Shown piece by piece: positions 1,532 through 6,164 of a stretch of DNA of 36,303 nt. Source of the stretch: an uncultured Clostridia bacterium (GTDB lineage Bacteria > Acidobacteriota > Aminicenantia > JBFLYD01 > JBBIMS01); NCBI GenBank assembly GCA_964517525.1, contig CAZFCI010000307.1:1-36303 (forward strand), given 5' to 3'. The notes below the pieces were generated by a model, which was not told the DNA's origin, ran no database searches, and saw only the letters and a program-made list of their open reading frames with translations. The position numbers and the translations under genes were made by a program. Within the stretch, counting starts at the first letter, position 1. Each line of letters opens with the position of its first letter.

Positions 1532-1765
1532 TTATCCCATAAATTCAAGGCACCATGCATAACCCACTATACAAAATCCTTCCCAGGCAAATGCTAATGC
1601 AGGATTGATGAAACCAGATAAGATAGCATCAAGGATACAGCGAGCATAGGCTGATTCACAACTTGCACTAAATGAAGGGGTAAAGCTAAAAAGCATTAAA
1701 ATTACAACAACCAATGAAAAAGCTACTCCTTTACCCAACCATTTCCTTTTTAAAAGAACCTTCAT
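1532..1765 (-). CDS. Small secreted twin-CX6C peptide, function unknown
   Basis: 77 aa: basic N-terminus, hydrophobic stretch, SFSA cleavage-like site, then CESAYARC-x21-CIVGYAWC. GGGAG RBS upstream. Confidence 0.75.
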   Translation of the reverse strand: MKVLLKRKWLGKGVAFSLVVVILMLFSFTPSFSASCESAYARCILDAILSGFINPALAFAWEGFCIVGYAWCLEFMG

Positions 1766-1777
1766 TTTTTAATCTCC

Positions 1778-1783
1778 CATAAT
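1778..1783 (+). promoter_or_regulatory. -10 half (CATAAT) of the IS110 circle-junction promoter
   Basis: Lies 17 nt from TTGACA (3368-3373) only after the right end is joined to the left end through ATCTCC. Confidence 0.8.
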
Positions 1784-1784
1784 A

Positions 1785-3374
1785 TTAATTATATGCATAG
1801 CAATTTAATTTACTTTTATTTACAATGGAATTTGAAAATCTCAGGGTGTTTGGCAAACCTTCATTTTGAGTGTGCCTTGAGCACGATAAGGAGGATGGTT
1901 CCCCACACTCTGACGGTGAGATTTGATTGCATGATGTGCTTCGAGCACTCAATCCGGGAGGATAATTCCCGTCAGAGCATGGGGGGAGCAGAACACCCTG
2001 CAACTGAAAGGAGGTCCTATGTTTAAAAACCTTTATGTCGGTGTCGATGTCTGTGAGGCTGAGTTTTCCGCTTGCTTCATGGATGGCAATGAAAGAAATC
2101 TCGCCTCCAGAAAATACCCTAATACCTTCGACGGATTCAGGCTCTTCAGACAGGACTGCCTCGCCTTCTCCCGTCTTGTGGGTAGAAATGCCAATATCAT
2201 AATCGGTATGGAATCTACAGGAAATTACCATGTCCCACTCCAATCTTTCCTCTTCAGTAGAGCAGGCAGAAGATTCAAAATTAGAGTGATTAACCCCTAC
2301 TGTGTTAAGAGTTTCAGAAAAGCCAGCTTTACCCTCTCCAAAACCGATAAAATCGATGCTGAGACAATCGCTCGATACCTCAAAGCTTTCCCCTCTCAGT
2401 CCTCTACCCCTATCCCTCCTCATCAGCTCTCTTTGCGCTCTACTACAAGATTTAGAAGAGTTCTCATACAGGAGAGAACAAGATGTATAAATCGCCTCAG
2501 GAAAAATCTCAGAGTGGTTCTCCCTGGATATAAAAGAGTGATCGGAGATAAAATCAATACCCCCTTCCTCCAGTTCCTCTCCCTTCATCCTGATTTCGAG
2601 GGTATACCCCCTTCCAGCCCCTACAGACCCCTCCTCAGCATCCTCCAGCAAGATATGCTCTCCATCCTCAAAGATGAGATCAAATGGACTGCAGAGAGAA
2701 TCCTCCAGCTCAATGGGCAGATTGAGGAGCTTGAAAGAAAGATTGATGAGATAATGGATACCTTCTACCCCGACCATATCCTCTTTTCCATCCCAGGTAT
2801 GGGAAAAATTACTGTTGCTACAATAATTGGAGAGATTGGAGATTCTGTCGAGAAATTTCCCACTCAGAAGGATTTCATTGGATATATCGGTCTCTATCCT
2901 GTTGTCTTTCAATCGGGGAAGAATTCTGTCTATTTTAAGATGACATGGAAAGGGAACAAATGGCTCAAAATGGCTTTTATCCTCGCAACTGTCTCTGCAA
3001 GGAAGAATAACCCAGCATTCAGAAATTTCTACAACAGACTCAGGGACAGGGGGAAGAGTAAAAAAGCAGCTGGAGGAGCTCTTGCAAGAAAGATAGCATG
3101 CGTTGTTTACGCAATCCTTCGTAGCGGTATACCATGGAATGAGGAATATGCTCTCTCTGGAATGAGAAGAGGAGAACAGATGAGCCAGAGGATAGATGAG
3201 ATGGCGGGTTCTCCCAATGGGGTAAACCCCGTAAGAGCTCAAAGGCTCAGTGATAATGTGGGACCAACCCGCCAGAGAAGAATATAATGCATATTTTTCC
3301 TTTTTGCAAGAGGTAGAAATGATTCTCCAACCTCCCATCAGTTCCAACTTTTCAGCCAATCTTCTACTTGACAT
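1785..3374 (-). CDS. 529-codon antisense ORF spanning the IS110 element; no recognisable protein family
   Basis: In the ORF track. In codon register with the transposase but also open through both non-coding ends. The host AAGGAG (3387-3392) lies 12 nt before its ATG. Translation is unproven. Confidence 0.4.
   Translation of the reverse strand: MSSRRLAEKLELMGGWRIISTSCKKEKYALYSSLAGWSHIITEPLSSYGVYPIGRTRHLIYPLAHLFSSSHSRESIFLIPWYTATKDCVNNACYLSCKSSSSCFFTLPPVPESVVEISECWVILPCRDSCEDKSHFEPFVPFPCHLKIDRILPRLKDNRIETDISNEILLSGKFLDRISNLSNYCSNSNFSHTWDGKEDMVGVEGIHYLINLSFKLLNLPIELEDSLCSPFDLIFEDGEHILLEDAEEGSVGAGRGYTLEIRMKGEELEEGGIDFISDHSFISRENHSEIFPEAIYTSCSLLYENSSKSCSRAQRELMRRDRGRGLRGESFEVSSDCLSIDFIGFGEGKAGFSETLNTVGVNHSNFESSACSTEEERLEWDMVISCRFHTDYDIGISTHKTGEGEAVLSEEPESVEGIRVFSGGEISFIAIHEASGKLSLTDIDTDIKVFKHRTSFQLQGVLLPPCSDGNYPPGLSARSTSCNQISPSECGEPSSLSCSRHTQNEGLPNTLRFSNSIVNKSKLNCYAYN
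1842..2000 (+). ncRNA. Predicted bridge RNA (target-binding loop about 1856-1900, donor-binding loop about 1901-1984)
   Basis: Closing stem CAGGGTGTT (1842-1850)/AACACCCTG (1992-2000). Stem CTCTGACGG (1908-1916)/CCGTCAGAG (1969-1977). Twin GTGC..GCAC hairpins at 1872-1884 and 1936-1948. Four loop segments match the target and donor junction sequences. The transcript may start near 1790. Confidence 0.85.
2019..3287 (+). CDS. IS110-family transposase/recombinase (DEDD RuvC-like plus Tnp20 domain)
   Basis: YVGVDV, GMESTG and KTDKIDA (DEDD tetrad); SIPGMG, FQSGK (catalytic Ser motif), KGNKWLK, ALARK. AAGGAGG RBS. Confidence 0.96.
   Translation: MFKNLYVGVDVCEAEFSACFMDGNERNLASRKYPNTFDGFRLFRQDCLAFSRLVGRNANIIIGMESTGNYHVPLQSFLFSRAGRRFKIRVINPYCVKSFRKASFTLSKTDKIDAETIARYLKAFPSQSSTPIPPHQLSLRSTTRFRRVLIQERTRCINRLRKNLRVVLPGYKRVIGDKINTPFLQFLSLHPDFEGIPPSSPYRPLLSILQQDMLSILKDEIKWTAERILQLNGQIEELERKIDEIMDTFYPDHILFSIPGMGKITVATIIGEIGDSVEKFPTQKDFIGYIGLYPVVFQSGKNSVYFKMTWKGNKWLKMAFILATVSARKNNPAFRNFYNRLRDRGKSKKAAGGALARKIACVVYAILRSGIPWNEEYALSGMRRGEQMSQRIDEMAGSPNGVNPVRAQRLSDNVGPTRQRRI
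3202..3274 (+). other. GC-rich multibranch stem-loop inside the 3' end of the IS110 transposase gene
   Basis: TGGCGGGTT (3202-3210)/AACCCGCCA (3266-3274) and TCCCA (3212-3216)/TGGGA (3259-3263), enclosing hairpins TGGGG-TAAA-CCCCG (3218-3231) and GAGCT-CAAA-GGCTC (3235-3248). Confidence 0.6.
3368..3373 (+). promoter_or_regulatory. -35 half (TTGACA) of the IS110 circle-junction promoter
   Basis: Perfect consensus, 17 nt inside the right boundary of the element. Confidence 0.8.
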
Positions 3375-3386
3375 TTATTATTGCAT

Positions 3387-3408
3387 CTCCTTAAATATGA
3401 TTTTACCA
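3387..3408 (-). promoter_or_regulatory. Displaced host extended -10 (TGGTAAAAT) and SD (TAAGGAG) of the peptide operon
   Basis: The minus strand reads TGGTAAAATCATATTTAAGGAG. The -35 region is poor, and read-through from the ATPase gene is also possible. Confidence 0.55.
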
Positions 3409-3433: not shown

Positions 3434-6076
3434 TCAAAAAGTTTGATTTCCCCTTTTTCTTTTCAAAAGTTTTTCCAATTCAACAGCAAAGAAGAGGAGG
3501 GAGGAAAAGAAGAGCATTATTAAGAGTTCAGGGATTGAGAGAGGAGTTGTCTTTAGAAATTTGTTAAACAATGGTATATAAATTGTTCCAATTTGTAAAA
3601 TAAATGTCCCTATAATTGTCCAGAAAAGAAGAGGATTGGAAAAGAACCCAACTTTAAATGTTGAATGGATAAAAGATTTACAAGCAAAAGCATGCCATAA
3701 CTGGGCTAAACATAAGACATTGAAGGTTATTGTCTGCCAGTGAAGGTTTAATTTTATAGCTATTCCCTGGGCTGTCAGAGTTAGCAAGCCGAGAAAAATG
3801 CCTGACCAGAGAATGCTTATACCAAGCCCTCTTGAAAAAATATTCTCCTTTGGATTTCTTGGTGGTCTTTCCATTATTCCGATCTCCCCCCTTTCAGAAG
3901 AAAAAGCAATCCCTGGCAGACCATCGGTTACAAGATTTATCCATAATATCTGAATTGGTTGCAGGGGTAGAGGTAAGCCAAAAAATGGTGCAAGGAATAT
4001 TGTCATTATCTCTCCAACATTGCTGGCAAGAACATATCTAATGAACTTAAGGATGTTATCATATATCTTTCTTCCTTCTTGTATTGCCTTTACAATTGTT
4101 GCAAAATTATCGTCGAGAAGAATCATATCAGATGCTTCCTTTGCAACATCTGTACCTGTAATTCCCATTGCAACTCCAATATCAGCTTTTTTTAAGGAGG
4201 GAGCATCATTTACACCGTCCCCAGTCATGGCAACATACTCCCCCTTATCCTGAAGAGCTTTAACAATCTTAAACTTTTGCTCAGGAGCAACCCTTGCATA
4301 GACTTTAATCTCTTTCACCCTTTCTTCAAGTTCTGCTAAACTCAGGGCATCAAGCTTTGCTCCTGTAATTATTGAATAATCATTTTCTAAAATACCTAAC
4401 TTTTTTGCAATAACCTTTGCTGTCAATGGGTGATCCCCTGTAATCATCACGGGTTTTATACCTGCTGATTTGCAGAGTTTAACTGCTGAGTATGCTTCTT
4501 CTCTTGGAGGATCCATCATTCCTATGAAACCAATAAATATCAAATCACTTTCAACATTTTCTGGCTCAAGATTCTCTGGAATAAAGTCCCACTCCCTAAT
4601 TGCAAAGCCAAGAACTCTTAAGCCATCTCCAGCCATCTTCTCATTGGTTATTGTTAATAAGTTCCTGTCAATCCTTCCTATCCCTTCTTCAGACAAAGAG
4701 CTTGATGATTTTGAAACGATAACCTCTGGCGCTCCCTTTGTAATTGAGAGAATTTTCCCACCCCTCCATTCATGAAAGGTTGTCATGCATTTCCTTTCTG
4801 AATCAAAGGGTATTTCTGCAATTCTTTTCATTTCCCTTTCTATTCTCTCCTTTTTAATTCCTGAATCTATCCCTAACTGAAGGAGGGCTATCTCAGTAGG
4901 GTCTCCAATAAATTTACCATTCTGATAAGATGCGTCGTTGGACAATGTTGCTATCTTCAAAAAGAAAAGTAATTTATTTAGATTGTCTTCGTTTTCATCA
5001 ATAATTATTTCATCTTTTTTATAAATTTTCCCATTCCAGAATATCTCCTCTACATTCATTTTATTGAGGGTCAGGGTTCCTGTTTTGTCCGTGCAAATGT
5101 AAGTTATAGAGCCTAAGGTTTCAACTGCAGGAAGCCTTCTTATTAAAGCATTTTCCTCAACCATTCTTCTTGCTCCGAAAGCCAGGGATATTGTTATAAC
5201 TGCTGGAAGAGCTTCTGGGATTGCAGCAACTGCAAGGCTAACTGCGGTTATAAAAAGGAGTATTGGTTCTCCTCCCCTTAGCAATCCAATAAAGAAAACT
5301 AAAGCACAAATAAAAAGAAATGCAAAAGAGAGTTTTTTACCAAGGTCAGTAAGCCTTTTCTGAAGGGGTGTCTTCTCCTCCTTAGCTTCCTGGAGCATTT
5401 CTGCAATTCTACCAAGTTCTGTTTTCATTCCTGTTTCAACAACAATTCCTTTACTTCTTCCCATTGTGACGGCAGTCCCTTTAAAAATCATATTTTTCCT
5501 GTCACCAAGAGGAAGATGTTTTTCCTTCAAGACTTTTGTTATCTTTTCAACAGGAACAGATTCTCCTGTTAATGATGCCTCATTCACCTTTAACTGATGT
5601 GCCTCTATCAAACGAATATCTGCGGGAACAATATTACCCGCTTCAACCAATACAATATCCCCTGGAACAATTTCCTCAATACGGATCTTCTTAATTTCAT
5701 TGTCCCTTAAAACAGTACCCTCAGGCTCAGCCATCTCCTTTAGTTTTTCCATTGCTTTTTCAGCCTTGTATTCCTGGACAAATCCGATCAGGGCATTTAA
5801 GAAGACTATAAGGAGAATTGCAATGGAATCCATTTCCTCTCCCAAAAAGGCTGAAATTATTGCTGCAGCAATAAGAATAATGATCATAAAATCGGAAAAT
5901 TGGCTTAGAAAAAGCAAAAAAGGACTTTTTTTCTTTTTCTCCTCTATCCTGTTCAAACCGTATATTGAAATTCTCCTTTTTGCCTCCTCAGAAGATATTC
6001 CAAAAGGGGAGGACTCAAGTATTTCAAAAACCTCTTCTATTTCTTTTCTATACCAGTCTGTTCTAATCTCTTCCAT
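3434..6076 (-). CDS. P-type cation-transporting ATPase, P2A (Ca2+, PMR1/SERCA-like)
   Basis: TGES, IPEALP, DKTGTLT, KGAPE, DPPR, MITGD, TGDGVND and WINLVTDG motifs. Start set to ATG 6076, which has GAGG upstream. Confidence 0.95.
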   Translation of the reverse strand: MEEIRTDWYRKEIEEVFEILESSPFGISSEEAKRRISIYGLNRIEEKKKKSPFLLFLSQFSDFMIIILIAAAIISAFLGEEMDSIAILLIVFLNALIGFVQEYKAEKAMEKLKEMAEPEGTVLRDNEIKKIRIEEIVPGDIVLVEAGNIVPADIRLIEAHQLKVNEASLTGESVPVEKITKVLKEKHLPLGDRKNMIFKGTAVTMGRSKGIVVETGMKTELGRIAEMLQEAKEEKTPLQKRLTDLGKKLSFAFLFICALVFFIGLLRGGEPILLFITAVSLAVAAIPEALPAVITISLAFGARRMVEENALIRRLPAVETLGSITYICTDKTGTLTLNKMNVEEIFWNGKIYKKDEIIIDENEDNLNKLLFFLKIATLSNDASYQNGKFIGDPTEIALLQLGIDSGIKKERIEREMKRIAEIPFDSERKCMTTFHEWRGGKILSITKGAPEVIVSKSSSSLSEEGIGRIDRNLLTITNEKMAGDGLRVLGFAIREWDFIPENLEPENVESDLIFIGFIGMMDPPREEAYSAVKLCKSAGIKPVMITGDHPLTAKVIAKKLGILENDYSIITGAKLDALSLAELEERVKEIKVYARVAPEQKFKIVKALQDKGEYVAMTGDGVNDAPSLKKADIGVAMGITGTDVAKEASDMILLDDNFATIVKAIQEGRKIYDNILKFIRYVLASNVGEIMTIFLAPFFGLPLPLQPIQILWINLVTDGLPGIAFSSERGEIGIMERPPRNPKENIFSRGLGISILWSGIFLGLLTLTAQGIAIKLNLHWQTITFNVLCLAQLWHAFACKSFIHSTFKVGFFSNPLLFWTIIGTFILQIGTIYIPLFNKFLKTTPLSIPELLIMLFFSSLLFFAVELEKLLKRKRGNQTF

Positions 6077-6164
6077 ACAAAACCTCAAACAGAAATTTTA
6101 TAATATTTTTTTAAAATTTAAAATTAAAACATCATCATCAGACAATCTTAAAATCAATTTTTCC

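Follow-up and report, generated by a model that had tools for sequence, protein, structure and literature searches.

A large clade of IS110-family elements maintains an open reading frame that runs antisense through the whole element and is selected for its openness only. This clade, spread over many bacterial phyla, targets the boundary between the Shine-Dalgarno (SD) sequence and the start codon of host genes. The layout has been known since IS900 (1997), and sequence comparison shows here that it is conserved across many phyla. We propose, with confidence evenly balanced, that the element described below is an IS900-type IS110 insertion whose antisense frame lets host ribosomes cross it, making the insertion nearly non-polar. 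IS110 bridge recombinases are under development as programmable genome-insertion tools, but few studies have looked at their natural biology. Should the frame allow host operons to stay expressed, it would provide a natural design for insertions that spare downstream genes.

An IS110 element between two copies of a CTCC core

The element was found in the window, a stretch of 36,303 nucleotides from an uncultured Clostridia bacterium (contig CAZFCI010000307.1). Its features and their surroundings are as follows.

1532-1765, minus strand: host ORF of 77 aa, with its ATG at 1765-1763, 8 nt past the regenerated GGGAG
1774-1777: left core CTCC, GGAG on the minus strand; with base 1778 it gives the SD GGGAG
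1778-2018, plus strand: left end (LE), holding the -10 half of the predicted circle-junction promoter and the bridge RNA
1778-1783, plus strand: -10 half of the predicted junction promoter, CATAAT, within LE
1785-3374, minus strand: hed-type antisense ORF running the length of the element, ATG start, 529 codons and a stop
about 1856-1986, plus strand: structured part of the bridge RNA, within LE (RNAalifold)
1859-1864, plus strand: LE motif CTTCAT (C-T/G-TCAT across the alignment)
1887-1896, plus strand: putative target guide TAAGGAGGAT, from its match to the target
1925-1932, plus strand: putative donor guide GATTGCAT, from its match to the donor
2019-3287, plus strand: IS110-family DEDD recombinase/transposase, 422 aa (Pfam, NF033542)
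3288-3386, plus strand: right end (RE), holding the -35 half of the predicted junction promoter and the donor motif
3368-3373, plus strand: -35 half of the predicted junction promoter, TTGACA, within RE
3378-3386, plus strand: donor motif TTATTGCAT, within RE
3387-3390: right core CTCC; its complement supplies the GGAG of the captured SD
3387-3392, minus strand: captured host SD AAGGAG, 12 nt upstream of the antisense ATG; ribBA's by synteny
3434-6088, minus strand: upstream host gene for a P-type cation ATPase (Pfam), directly followed by ribBA in three congeners

The IS110-family bridge-RNA element occupies 1778-3386, with one copy of the CTCC core on either side. An IS110-type insert had been recognised in the original prediction, but its limits of 1772-3390 are replaced by these core-flanked ones; likewise, the AAGGAG that it had assigned to the host at the right end is present, but its GGAG is the right core copy. 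Empty sites of three congeners hold one CTCC, and the occupied site holds one at each junction. Since donor and target share this 4-bp core, GGAG stands on both sides of the insert.

The transposase matched PF01548 (106 bits, cut-off 29), PF02371 (76.7 bits, cut-off 21.3) and NF033542, "IS110 family RNA-guided transposase" (223 bits, cut-off 140). RNAalifold gave a bridge RNA consensus from 21 LEs with 30 pairs, compensatory changes in 17 of them, and two internal loops; loop 1 has an invariant AGGAG on its 3' side, and loop 2 an invariant GATTGCA on its 5' side. An Rfam search with the bridge RNA returned no family, the sole match being a chance one to snoR1 (E=0.86). In the predicted circle, 17 nt (3374-3390) would lie between TTGACA and CATAAT. 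The RE motif TTGACA-N4-TTAT[TA][GA][CT]A[TG]-CTCC was found in 37 distinct right ends, and both halves of the predicted junction promoter are kept (37 right ends, 37 left ends).

The antisense frame starts with the ATG at 3374-3372, separated by a 12-nt gap (3386-3375) from AAGGAG (3392-3387, minus strand). It stops with the TAA at 1787-1785, leaving 19 nt (1784-1766, holding GGGAG) before the host ATG at 1765-1763; these coordinates agree with those first proposed. The start codon overlaps the complement of the -35 box, and the stop falls just within the complement of the -10 region. Only ATGCAATAATAA separates the junction GGAG from the antisense ATG, and the ORF, with no ribosome-binding site (RBS) of its own, depends on that of the host. 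All 11 right junctions in the host genus read AGGAG, ATGCAATAATAA, ATG, and at every junction the AGGAG comes from the target plus the core. At the other end, the regenerated GGGAG (1778-1774, minus strand) is 8 nt ahead of the downstream host ATG. Frames in relatives measure 520-625 codons.

SD/start-codon junctions as targets

Among relatives, a host ATG lies 5-10 nt past GGAG and opens an ORF at 33 of 36 distinct left junctions; at these sites the element is oriented antisense to the host gene. Pfam domains were found in 7 of 10 ORFs downstream of such junctions, some aligned from residue 2. The three left junctions in the window's genome have the form CAT-N6-8-CTCC, and the 11 right junctions from the genus have the form CTCC-T(T/A/G); the left and right flanks in the window combine to CAT-T-TTTTAA-TCTCCTT. 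Copies in this genome precede its only ribBA and a type I glnA, and both genes are intact.

Contrary to what had been supposed, the two flanks in the window do not belong to one host gene. Synteny in three congeners assigns the right-end SD to ribBA; the ATG belongs to another gene, and the contig thus joins two insertion sites. The 77-aa ORF is probably the left-junction site of a copy rather than the original partner of the right flank. Profile searches found no family for it, and no orthologous empty site was found in the three congeners.

Antisense stops are avoided beyond chance

Because the antisense ORF and the transposase (2019-3287, plus strand) share one codon register, antisense stops correspond to sense TTA, CTA or TCA. 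None of these codons occurs among the 35 Leu and 30 Ser codons of the window transposase. From the use of A-ending codons in other codon families, which serves as an internal control, 17.0 antisense stops were expected against the 0 observed (P(0)=1.4e-9). The non-coding ends behave alike: the LE (229 nt) has 0 in-register antisense stops against 4 and 4 in the other two antisense frames, and the RE (84 nt) has 0 against 2 and 1.

The same was seen across the clade. Among 61 non-identical transposases of at least 380 aa, antisense stops are absent in 42. All 16 low-GC members (GC 0.37-0.51) have 0 stops against 11.2-22.8 expected, with P(0) from 4e-6 to 4e-13, and they use A-ending codons normally in other families (fA4 0.14-0.32). 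The estimator fits 12 low-GC IS110s without the frame (observed and expected counts of 14 and 13.4, 28 and 28.4, 39 and 37.2). In the LEs of the low-GC members (3484 nt) the in-register frame has 14 stops, whereas the other frames have 68 and 74; 6 of the 14 are the ORF's own stop, 6 come from L045 and 2 from L052. Their REs (954 nt) contain 0 against 18 and 23. The open antisense frame is not due to chance. Divergent homologues that target SD/start-codon sites (35-75% transposase identity) keep it open from end to end, as the original prediction had anticipated.

Start and stop are held in phase

Both ends of the frame are maintained in register. Of 30 distinct right ends from elements without antisense stops, 29 have a start in the antisense frame (ATG in 24, TTG in 5). 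Its phase is kept although the distance to the transposase stop takes 19 different values, each of them divisible by 3; this signal could come partly from the sense stop codon shifting within one frame. In left ends of the TATAA type, which are those of high-GC members, LE length is 2 mod 3 in 20 of 22, over 9 different lengths, which places the TAG of TTA-TAG-GAGG in frame. The frame ends 0-16 nt ahead of the regenerated SD.

Host ribosomes may cross the insert

Classical IS insertions are polar, and untranslated RNA within an operon is prone to Rho termination. In the usual intercistronic layout, one cistron ends a short way ahead of the SD and start codon of the next. The element described here would avoid polarity by means of its open frame. 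In the mechanism that we propose, the bridge RNA would guide the element into a consensus SD/start junction (CAT-N5-10-CTCC-TTA on the element's plus strand), with insertion antisense to the host gene. The upstream GGAG copy retains the host SD context, 12 nt ahead of an ATG or TTG inside the -35 box, and the downstream copy re-forms an SD for the host gene. From that start codon the frame would be read across the RE, the transposase and the bridge-RNA region, ending before the regenerated SD. Host ribosomes loaded at the captured SD would translate the 1.6-kb insert and keep transcription and translation coupled; the host transcript would be spared from Rho or decay, and the downstream gene would be expressed from the regenerated SD. 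With ribosomes crossing the insert, insertion would be nearly non-polar and copies could persist before housekeeping genes.

From the sequence we infer that the frame is translated, that polarity is thereby prevented and that this is the benefit selected for. For these uncultured phyla, it is a textbook assumption that an untranslated insert would fall prey to Rho or decay. Against the mechanism, 12 nt between SD and ATG is more than efficient initiation would favour, and this spacing is set by the geometry of the promoter and not tuned for translation; moreover, the host gene has its own regenerated SD and does not need re-initiation. A stricter version, in which the hed-type frame is a translated spacer, ribosome passage is the sole selected property and the clade became non-polar by integrating exactly at the SD/start junction, doubling the SD core and offering ribosomes an open frame that closes just ahead of the regenerated SD, we hold slightly more doubtful than its converse. 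If true, the elements could spread to the 5' ends of ribBA, glnA and other housekeeping genes with little burden, the hed frame of IS900 would have its first functional explanation, and the clade would clearly exemplify selection for translatability with none on the product.

Antisense translation might instead serve the element, with host gene expression as a side effect: protected read-through would keep the integrated copy quiet, by antisense RNA to the transposase mRNA and the bridge RNA or by transcriptional interference, or it may tune excision. The fixed antisense orientation would suit this reading. So would the behaviour of IS621, for which passages of PMC13626964 describe excision from the chromosome as dependent on sense read-through of flanking genes, which antisense read-through would oppose. 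A neutral product fits as well, but is needed equally by the passage of host ribosomes. Serving the element does not account for the position of the stop just ahead of the regenerated SD, maintained in 20 of 22 high-GC left ends, or for the loss of the frame in a Dehalococcoidia-type clade in which AGGAG is present and the downstream start absent. We consider this reading unlikely.

The antisense product is not conserved

The ORF might encode a real protein, a Hed homologue dependent on host signals and acting in transposition or on the host. Its start codon is conserved and in phase, and gene callers predict full-length homologues, 6 of 15 matches in a representative library being 517-566 aa long. 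However, the product carries no amino-acid constraint beyond that of the transposase. At conserved residues, synonymous-codon identity was 1.03-1.04 times expectation (377 pairs below 50% identity), and antisense identity equalled that simulated with free synonymous codon choice (0.178 observed versus 0.174 simulated; 0.227 versus 0.219). Only 3 columns are invariant in 26 antisense proteins, compared with 64 in 29 transposases. The N-terminal part of the antisense product, 1 to 121 codons long, evolves neutrally, with 4 synonymous and 25 non-synonymous changes between the RE codons of L010 and L066, and a Pfam search with the product returned no family. Since the product is conserved no further than the transposase imposes, selection acts on the openness of the frame and not on what it encodes, which bears out the earlier suggestion that the protein may be irrelevant. 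A functional Hed protein is thus improbable.

A preference for CTC, considered as a sign of constraint on the antisense protein, proved lineage-specific: L044 has CTT 24 times and CTC 4 times.

Lineages without the frame

Two groups nested among the open lineages carry 2-20 antisense stops. One, with five entries (WOR-3, L078 and L069), targets G/C hairpins; stops are still depleted in L069 (2 versus 14.4 expected). The other, the Dehalococcoidia-type clade with nine entries, still sits behind AGGAG and has no downstream start codon at 3 of 4 sites. The frame was lost after the change of target. Sub-lineages that do not target SD/start-codon sites and outgroup IS110s do not keep an open antisense frame, as the original prediction required. 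The tree came from a quick search with long-branch warnings, and the clade stands in it on a long stem. The plasmid-borne IS110 relatives found by tblastn have less than 30% transposase identity; those of actinobacterial plasmids are 27-28% identical, and the two of these inspected, L134 with 7 antisense stops and L135 with 4, do not share the arrangement.

Between 1 and 4 antisense stops are present in five members of the clade (L061, L074, L079, L085 and L093), and two of them, L061 and L074, are located at SD/start-codon sites. L045 has 6 in-register LE stops, and the start of L052 is out of frame. Such exceptions are perhaps copies in decay; alternatively, the frame may not be essential. 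Outgroups L094-98, L033, L100 and L102 lie 5-7 nt before start codons, yet carry 17-39 antisense stops. This contradicts a rule by which every IS110 near a start codon keeps the frame, and other ways of tolerance must therefore exist.

These cases speak for a further alternative, in which something else sustains the host gene (an outward LE promoter, or independent initiation on a stable read-through transcript) and the frame is kept for another reason. The outgroups just upstream of start codons and the five stop-carrying members are compatible with it, and the regenerated SD permits independent initiation. However, a consensus scan for promoters and terminators gave nothing above shuffle expectation, with no outward sigma-70-like promoter at the left end, and the strong selection for an open, in-phase frame is left unexplained. 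We regard this alternative as decidedly improbable.

To the view that the open frame is a passive by-product of transposase base composition or codon usage, as in-register antisense frames of GC-rich genes often are, we give almost no credence: the IS900 host is GC-rich and high-GC members do expect few stops (L017 0.3, L010 1.7, L070 2.7), but an origin by codon bias is contradicted by the stop avoidance of the 16 low-GC members with their normal A-ending codons, by non-coding ends that are open in the frame of the antisense ORF only, by a start and a junction stop that stay in phase over many lengths, and by outgroups of equal GC with 14-48 stops.

Relation to IS900 and other known systems

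Doran et al. reportedly described the hed ORF of IS900 in 1997 (Microbiology 143:547), with its function unknown. Passages of PMC8141618 describe hed, in Mycobacterium avium subsp. paratuberculosis, as an element-long ORF on the complementary strand that needs a host RBS, and give the target of IS900 as CATGNNNNNNTCTCCTT (CATGN6TCTCCTT), an RBS/start-codon site. The statement in the original prediction that no such arrangement had been described was thus wrong, both hed and the SD/start-codon target having been published in 1997 according to the same passages (PMC8141618). There, in 2021, hed is still "of unknown function"; it was published as a gene, whereas we read the frame described here as a translated spacer. 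Literature searches found nothing that interprets hed, or an antisense ORF in any IS, as a means against polarity, and no IS in the papers searched is shown to escape polarity through an open frame.

IS900 and the present element are both IS110-family members, apparently without inverted repeats, and each genome has numerous copies located ahead of genes. Each has a complementary-strand ORF that spans the element and requires a host RBS, and the IS900 motif, as given in those passages, matches the sites found here, including the flanks in the window. They differ in that hed is described as lacking both an RBS and a start codon (PMC8141618, same passages), whereas the present elements conserve an ATG or TTG inside the element, 12 nt past the SD. 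The likeness to IS900, known by description, is one of layout and target motif. The host of IS900 is GC-rich and passive frames are possible there, whereas the present element and 15 relatives are low-GC.

Likenesses to IS621 and other IS110 elements, as described in parts of PMC11208160, PMC11208158 and PMC13626964, extend to the DEDD RuvC-like and Tnp domains, an LE-encoded two-loop RNA (here with covariation and with putative guide matches to target and donor), and a core repeated at both junctions. IS110 elements have a sigma-70 junction promoter whose halves lie in RE and LE and are joined again in the circle, and that of IS621 is split upon integration (PMC11208160, relevant passages); the TTGACA and CATAAT found here are candidates for such halves. 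The targets described there are repeats such as REP, with a core dinucleotide (PMC11208160), whereas here they are SD/start junctions with a 4-bp core. The word "antisense" has 0 occurrences in PMC13626964 and in PMC11187229.

Base skew

In low-GC members the antisense strand has an mRNA-like excess of G over C, the skew of the sense strand being -0.107. The corresponding skew is +0.091 in low-GC IS110s without the frame, and it is positive in 13 of 14 host genes in the window. The G>C skew of the antisense strand gives weak support to the mechanism proposed above.

A minus-strand frame spans the element

The IS110-family element of the window is spanned by a minus-strand ORF that lies between an AAGGAG and a host ATG, and the ORF coordinates and spacings of the original prediction were confirmed.

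Features of the element in the window
1785..3374, minus strand: antisense ORF, 529 aa, ATG start (ORF listing of the window)
3392-3387, minus strand: AAGGAG, followed after 12 nt by the antisense ATG
3374-3372, minus strand: antisense ATG, overlapping the complement of the -35 box
1787-1785, minus strand: antisense stop TAA, just inside the -10 region
1778-1774, minus strand: GGGAG, within the 19 nt separating the antisense TAA from the host ATG
1765-1763, minus strand: host ATG, 19 nt past the antisense TAA
2019-3287, plus strand: IS110-family recombinase, 422 aa (PF01548, PF02371, NF033542 'IS110 family RNA-guided transposase')
about 1856-1986, plus strand: structured part of the bridge RNA (common fold of 21 left ends)
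3368-3373, plus strand: TTGACA in the right end, -35 half of a putative junction promoter
1778-1783, plus strand: CATAAT at the start of the left end, -10 half of the putative junction promoter

Because the transposase and antisense frames are in register, every sense TTA, CTA or TCA is an antisense stop. These codons are absent from the 35 Leu and 30 Ser codons of the window transposase, and in the window's host genes they account for 28% of the codons for each of these two amino acids. If the element circularised, TTGACA and CATAAT would lie 17 nt apart, as read from the sequence, a layout that matches the IS110 junction promoter of PMC11208160 (in excerpt).

Element ends and insertion sites

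In the 312-contig assembly of the window's genome (G000), the element occurs as the full copy and as two further left ends and two further right ends, these four all at contig ends. The left junctions (3/3) read host CAT, 6-8 nt, CTCC and then element CATAAT..., and the right junctions (3/3) read ...TTATTGCAT, CTCC, TTA; AGGAG adjoined the same element end at 8 further right junctions of a congener, giving 11/11. The empty site in three congeners consists of a P-type ATPase gene, then CAT-N5-7-CCTCCTTAA and ribBA. Occupied junctions and empty sites together thus define the element as 1778-3386, with the 4-bp core CTCC repeated on both sides, and the AAGGAG at its right end as the Shine-Dalgarno sequence (SD) of ribBA, since ribBA directly follows the ATPase gene in the three congeners. 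The SD and start codon had been assigned to a single host site, which did not hold: the SD is that of ribBA, and the ATG is that of a 77-aa ORF at the left junction, a different site from the ATPase/ribBA site. In G000, ribBA lies on contig C195, adjoining an element left end (L003). The window contig (C307) therefore joins two insertion sites, either through an assembly mis-join at the repeat or through recombination between two copies.

The ribBA with a copy in front is the only ribBA of G000 and its ORF is intact, as is that of a type I glnA that also has a copy in front and a 42% paralogue elsewhere in the genome. The target top strand, A(C/T)CTCCTTA (window 3385-3393 and the L003 junction), presumably resembles the 3' end of 16S rRNA (anti-SD), so that off-target insertion at the ends of rRNA genes is conceivable. 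In the congener G002, at least eight contig ends (L125-L132) carry the last ~51 nt of a related element at 87-88% identity, all behind AGGAG, which points to a high copy number of that element.

The frame is kept open across relatives

With an alignment of 29 transposases as query, 100 related loci were collected (30 genomic, 70 metagenomic), and a plus-strand match was present in 101 sequences, window included. In the tree of 69 transposases, a quick search with long-branch warnings from which 32 rows were left out as shorter than 380 aa or identical, all 42 rows without antisense stops fell into one clade of 61 rows, whose stem was long and had full support. The original prediction had proposed testing whether divergent homologues that target ribosome-binding sites keep the frame open; these 42 of 61 rows did, among them 16 low-GC members in which many stops would be expected. 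The in-register frames of the 42 measured 502-733 codons; 8 run off the contig end, and those of L030 (720 codons) and L032 (733 codons) extend beyond the element into flanking DNA. The stop-free state required 7 changes on the tree versus 21.6 in shuffles, none of 500 being as low. Five further clade members had 1-4 antisense stops.

Expected stops were estimated from the share of A-ending codons in the same gene's other codon families. Each of the 16 low-GC members showed 0 stops versus 11.2-22.8 expected, and the estimator agreed with the counts in 12 low-GC IS110s whose antisense frame is not open (observed/expected 14/13.4, 14/13.5, 14/13.1, 20/15.3, 21/22.5, 28/28.4, 26/21.0, 39/37.2, 21/28.0, 48/40.5, 17/22.0 and 18/25.9). 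As for the non-coding ends of low-GC members, their left ends had 14 in-register stops (6 terminal stops of the ORF itself, 6 in L045 and 2 in L052), compared with 68 and 74 for the two remaining antisense frames, and their right ends had 0 versus 18 and 23. Sense-strand GC skew was -0.107 in low-GC members; low-GC IS110s with no such frame had +0.091, and 13 of the window's 14 host genes had positive values, which hints that the antisense strand is mRNA-like.

Start and stop are held in phase

In 37 distinct right ends a common landmark could be located (TTGACA, 4 nt, donor motif, core), and 34 of these have the triplet that overlaps the -35 box in the antisense frame. For stop-free elements this was so in 29/30 (24 ATG, 5 TTG; exception L052). 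The spacing between the in-frame start and the transposase stop took 19 different values, from 3 to 363 nt and all multiples of three; this signal could arise partly from the sense stop shifting within its own frame, but long right ends are non-coding in sense. GC-rich members have the left junction TTA-TAG-GAGG, and their left-end length was 2 mod 3 in 20/22 distinct ends of nine lengths (exceptions L069 and L015), so the junction TAG would serve as stop of the antisense frame. Among low-GC members the phase varies, with TAA, TAG or TGA 6-16 nt ahead of GGGAG.

Bridge RNA and target

The common fold of 21 left ends had 30 pairs, 17 with compensatory changes, and an Rfam search with the bridge RNA matched no model. 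The first loop carries on its 3' side an invariant AGGAG, complementary to the target CTCC, and the second loop contains GATTGCA, a match to the donor end. On the 5' side, the first loop (window 1859-1864; columns about 146-151 of alignment A2, which covers the bridge-RNA left ends) reads C(T/G)TCAT in 21/21, invariant except for the second base. The CAT within this motif complements the target's host start codon, and the putative guide may therefore read SD and start codon across a variable spacer. A host ATG followed GGAG after 5-10 nt and opened an ORF at 33 of 36 distinct left junctions, the misses being two very short flanks and L067. Pfam domains were found in 7/10 ORFs downstream of left junctions (e.g. 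YicC-like_N, aligned from residue 2).

Two lineages nested in the clade are without the frame. In one, of 5 rows (L069, L078 and three WOR-3 copies), the flanks are G/C hairpins, not SD-ATG, and antisense stops number 2, 20 and 14, L069 being still depleted (2 versus 14.4 expected). A 9-row Dehalococcoidia-type clade, with 6-7 stops, lands behind AGAAGGAG in repeated sequence, with no downstream start codon at 3/4 sites. Behind AGAAGGAG, the flanks of the Dehalococcoidia-type copies L016, L019, L073, L080 and L081 are alike (GGAG-CG-N-TA...CCCA...TCAC), in what looks like repeated host sequence.

Possible roles of the frame

In excerpts of PMC8141618, hed of IS900 is described as a further ORF that lies opposite the transposase, spans the whole element and has neither RBS nor start codon, and the IS900 target is given as CATGNNNNNNTCTCCTT (citing Doran et al.). 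The window's insertion sites fit this motif, so that the arrangement, earlier thought to be undescribed, has a precedent and the window's element is a distant new member; unlike hed as described there, its frame has its own start codon. Literature searches on hed and IS antisense ORFs turned up no proposal that a frame of this type guards against polarity.

The best-supported reading, to which we give about an even chance, is that read-through of the frame by host ribosomes preserves downstream gene expression. Ribosomes would start from the captured SD and translate the frame along the whole element; the host transcript would thereby stay coupled and intact, so that the downstream gene could be expressed from the regenerated SD. 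The original interpretation is upheld in part: the suggestion that the protein may be irrelevant gains support, and the view that nothing of the kind had been described was wrong.

Translation might instead silence or regulate the element, a doubtful but real alternative: according to excerpts of PMC13626964, excision of integrated IS621 requires sense read-through from flanking genes, and the element here, being always antisense to its host gene, would not receive it.

A genuine Hed protein as the product of the ORF is unlikely. Among 34 sequences less than 90% identical, synonymous-codon agreement at residues conserved between transposases was 1.03 (151 pairs) and 1.04 (226 pairs) times expectation below 50% identity, and only the 21 pairs above 70% reached 1.36. 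Antisense protein identity matched simulations with free synonymous choice (0.178 versus 0.174; 0.227 versus 0.219), and 26 aligned antisense proteins had 3 invariant columns versus 64 in 29 transposases. Right-end codons of L010 and L066, where nothing else is encoded, differed by 4 synonymous and 25 non-synonymous changes (9, 14 and 13 by codon position), and the product matched no Pfam family. Selection thus acts on openness and phase and not on product sequence, in keeping with the earlier guess that the protein may be irrelevant.

Survival of host-gene expression through some other mechanism, with a different role for the frame, is distinctly improbable, although outgroups at 25-32% identity (L094-98, L033, L100, L102) sit 5-7 nt before host start codons yet carry 17-39 antisense stops. 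A strict rule that any IS110 near a start codon has an open frame was rejected on these outgroups. They have CTCC or CCTTC at the left junction and no AGGAG at right junctions; translation-start targeting appears to predate the hed-type frame and to be more widespread. A passive by-product is scarcely credible given the stop deficit of the low-GC members and ends open only in register.

Other repeats in the genome

Where two genes of the window converge, a 76-nt stretch (1290-1366) recurs on contig C12 at 100% identity and partially on C171 and C67, and a congener has related pieces at several of its contig ends; the stretch may be a further small repeat or a mobile-element end. G000 also carries a second, different IS110-family transposase gene (L108, contig C239:15276-15734; PF01548, 80.5 bits).
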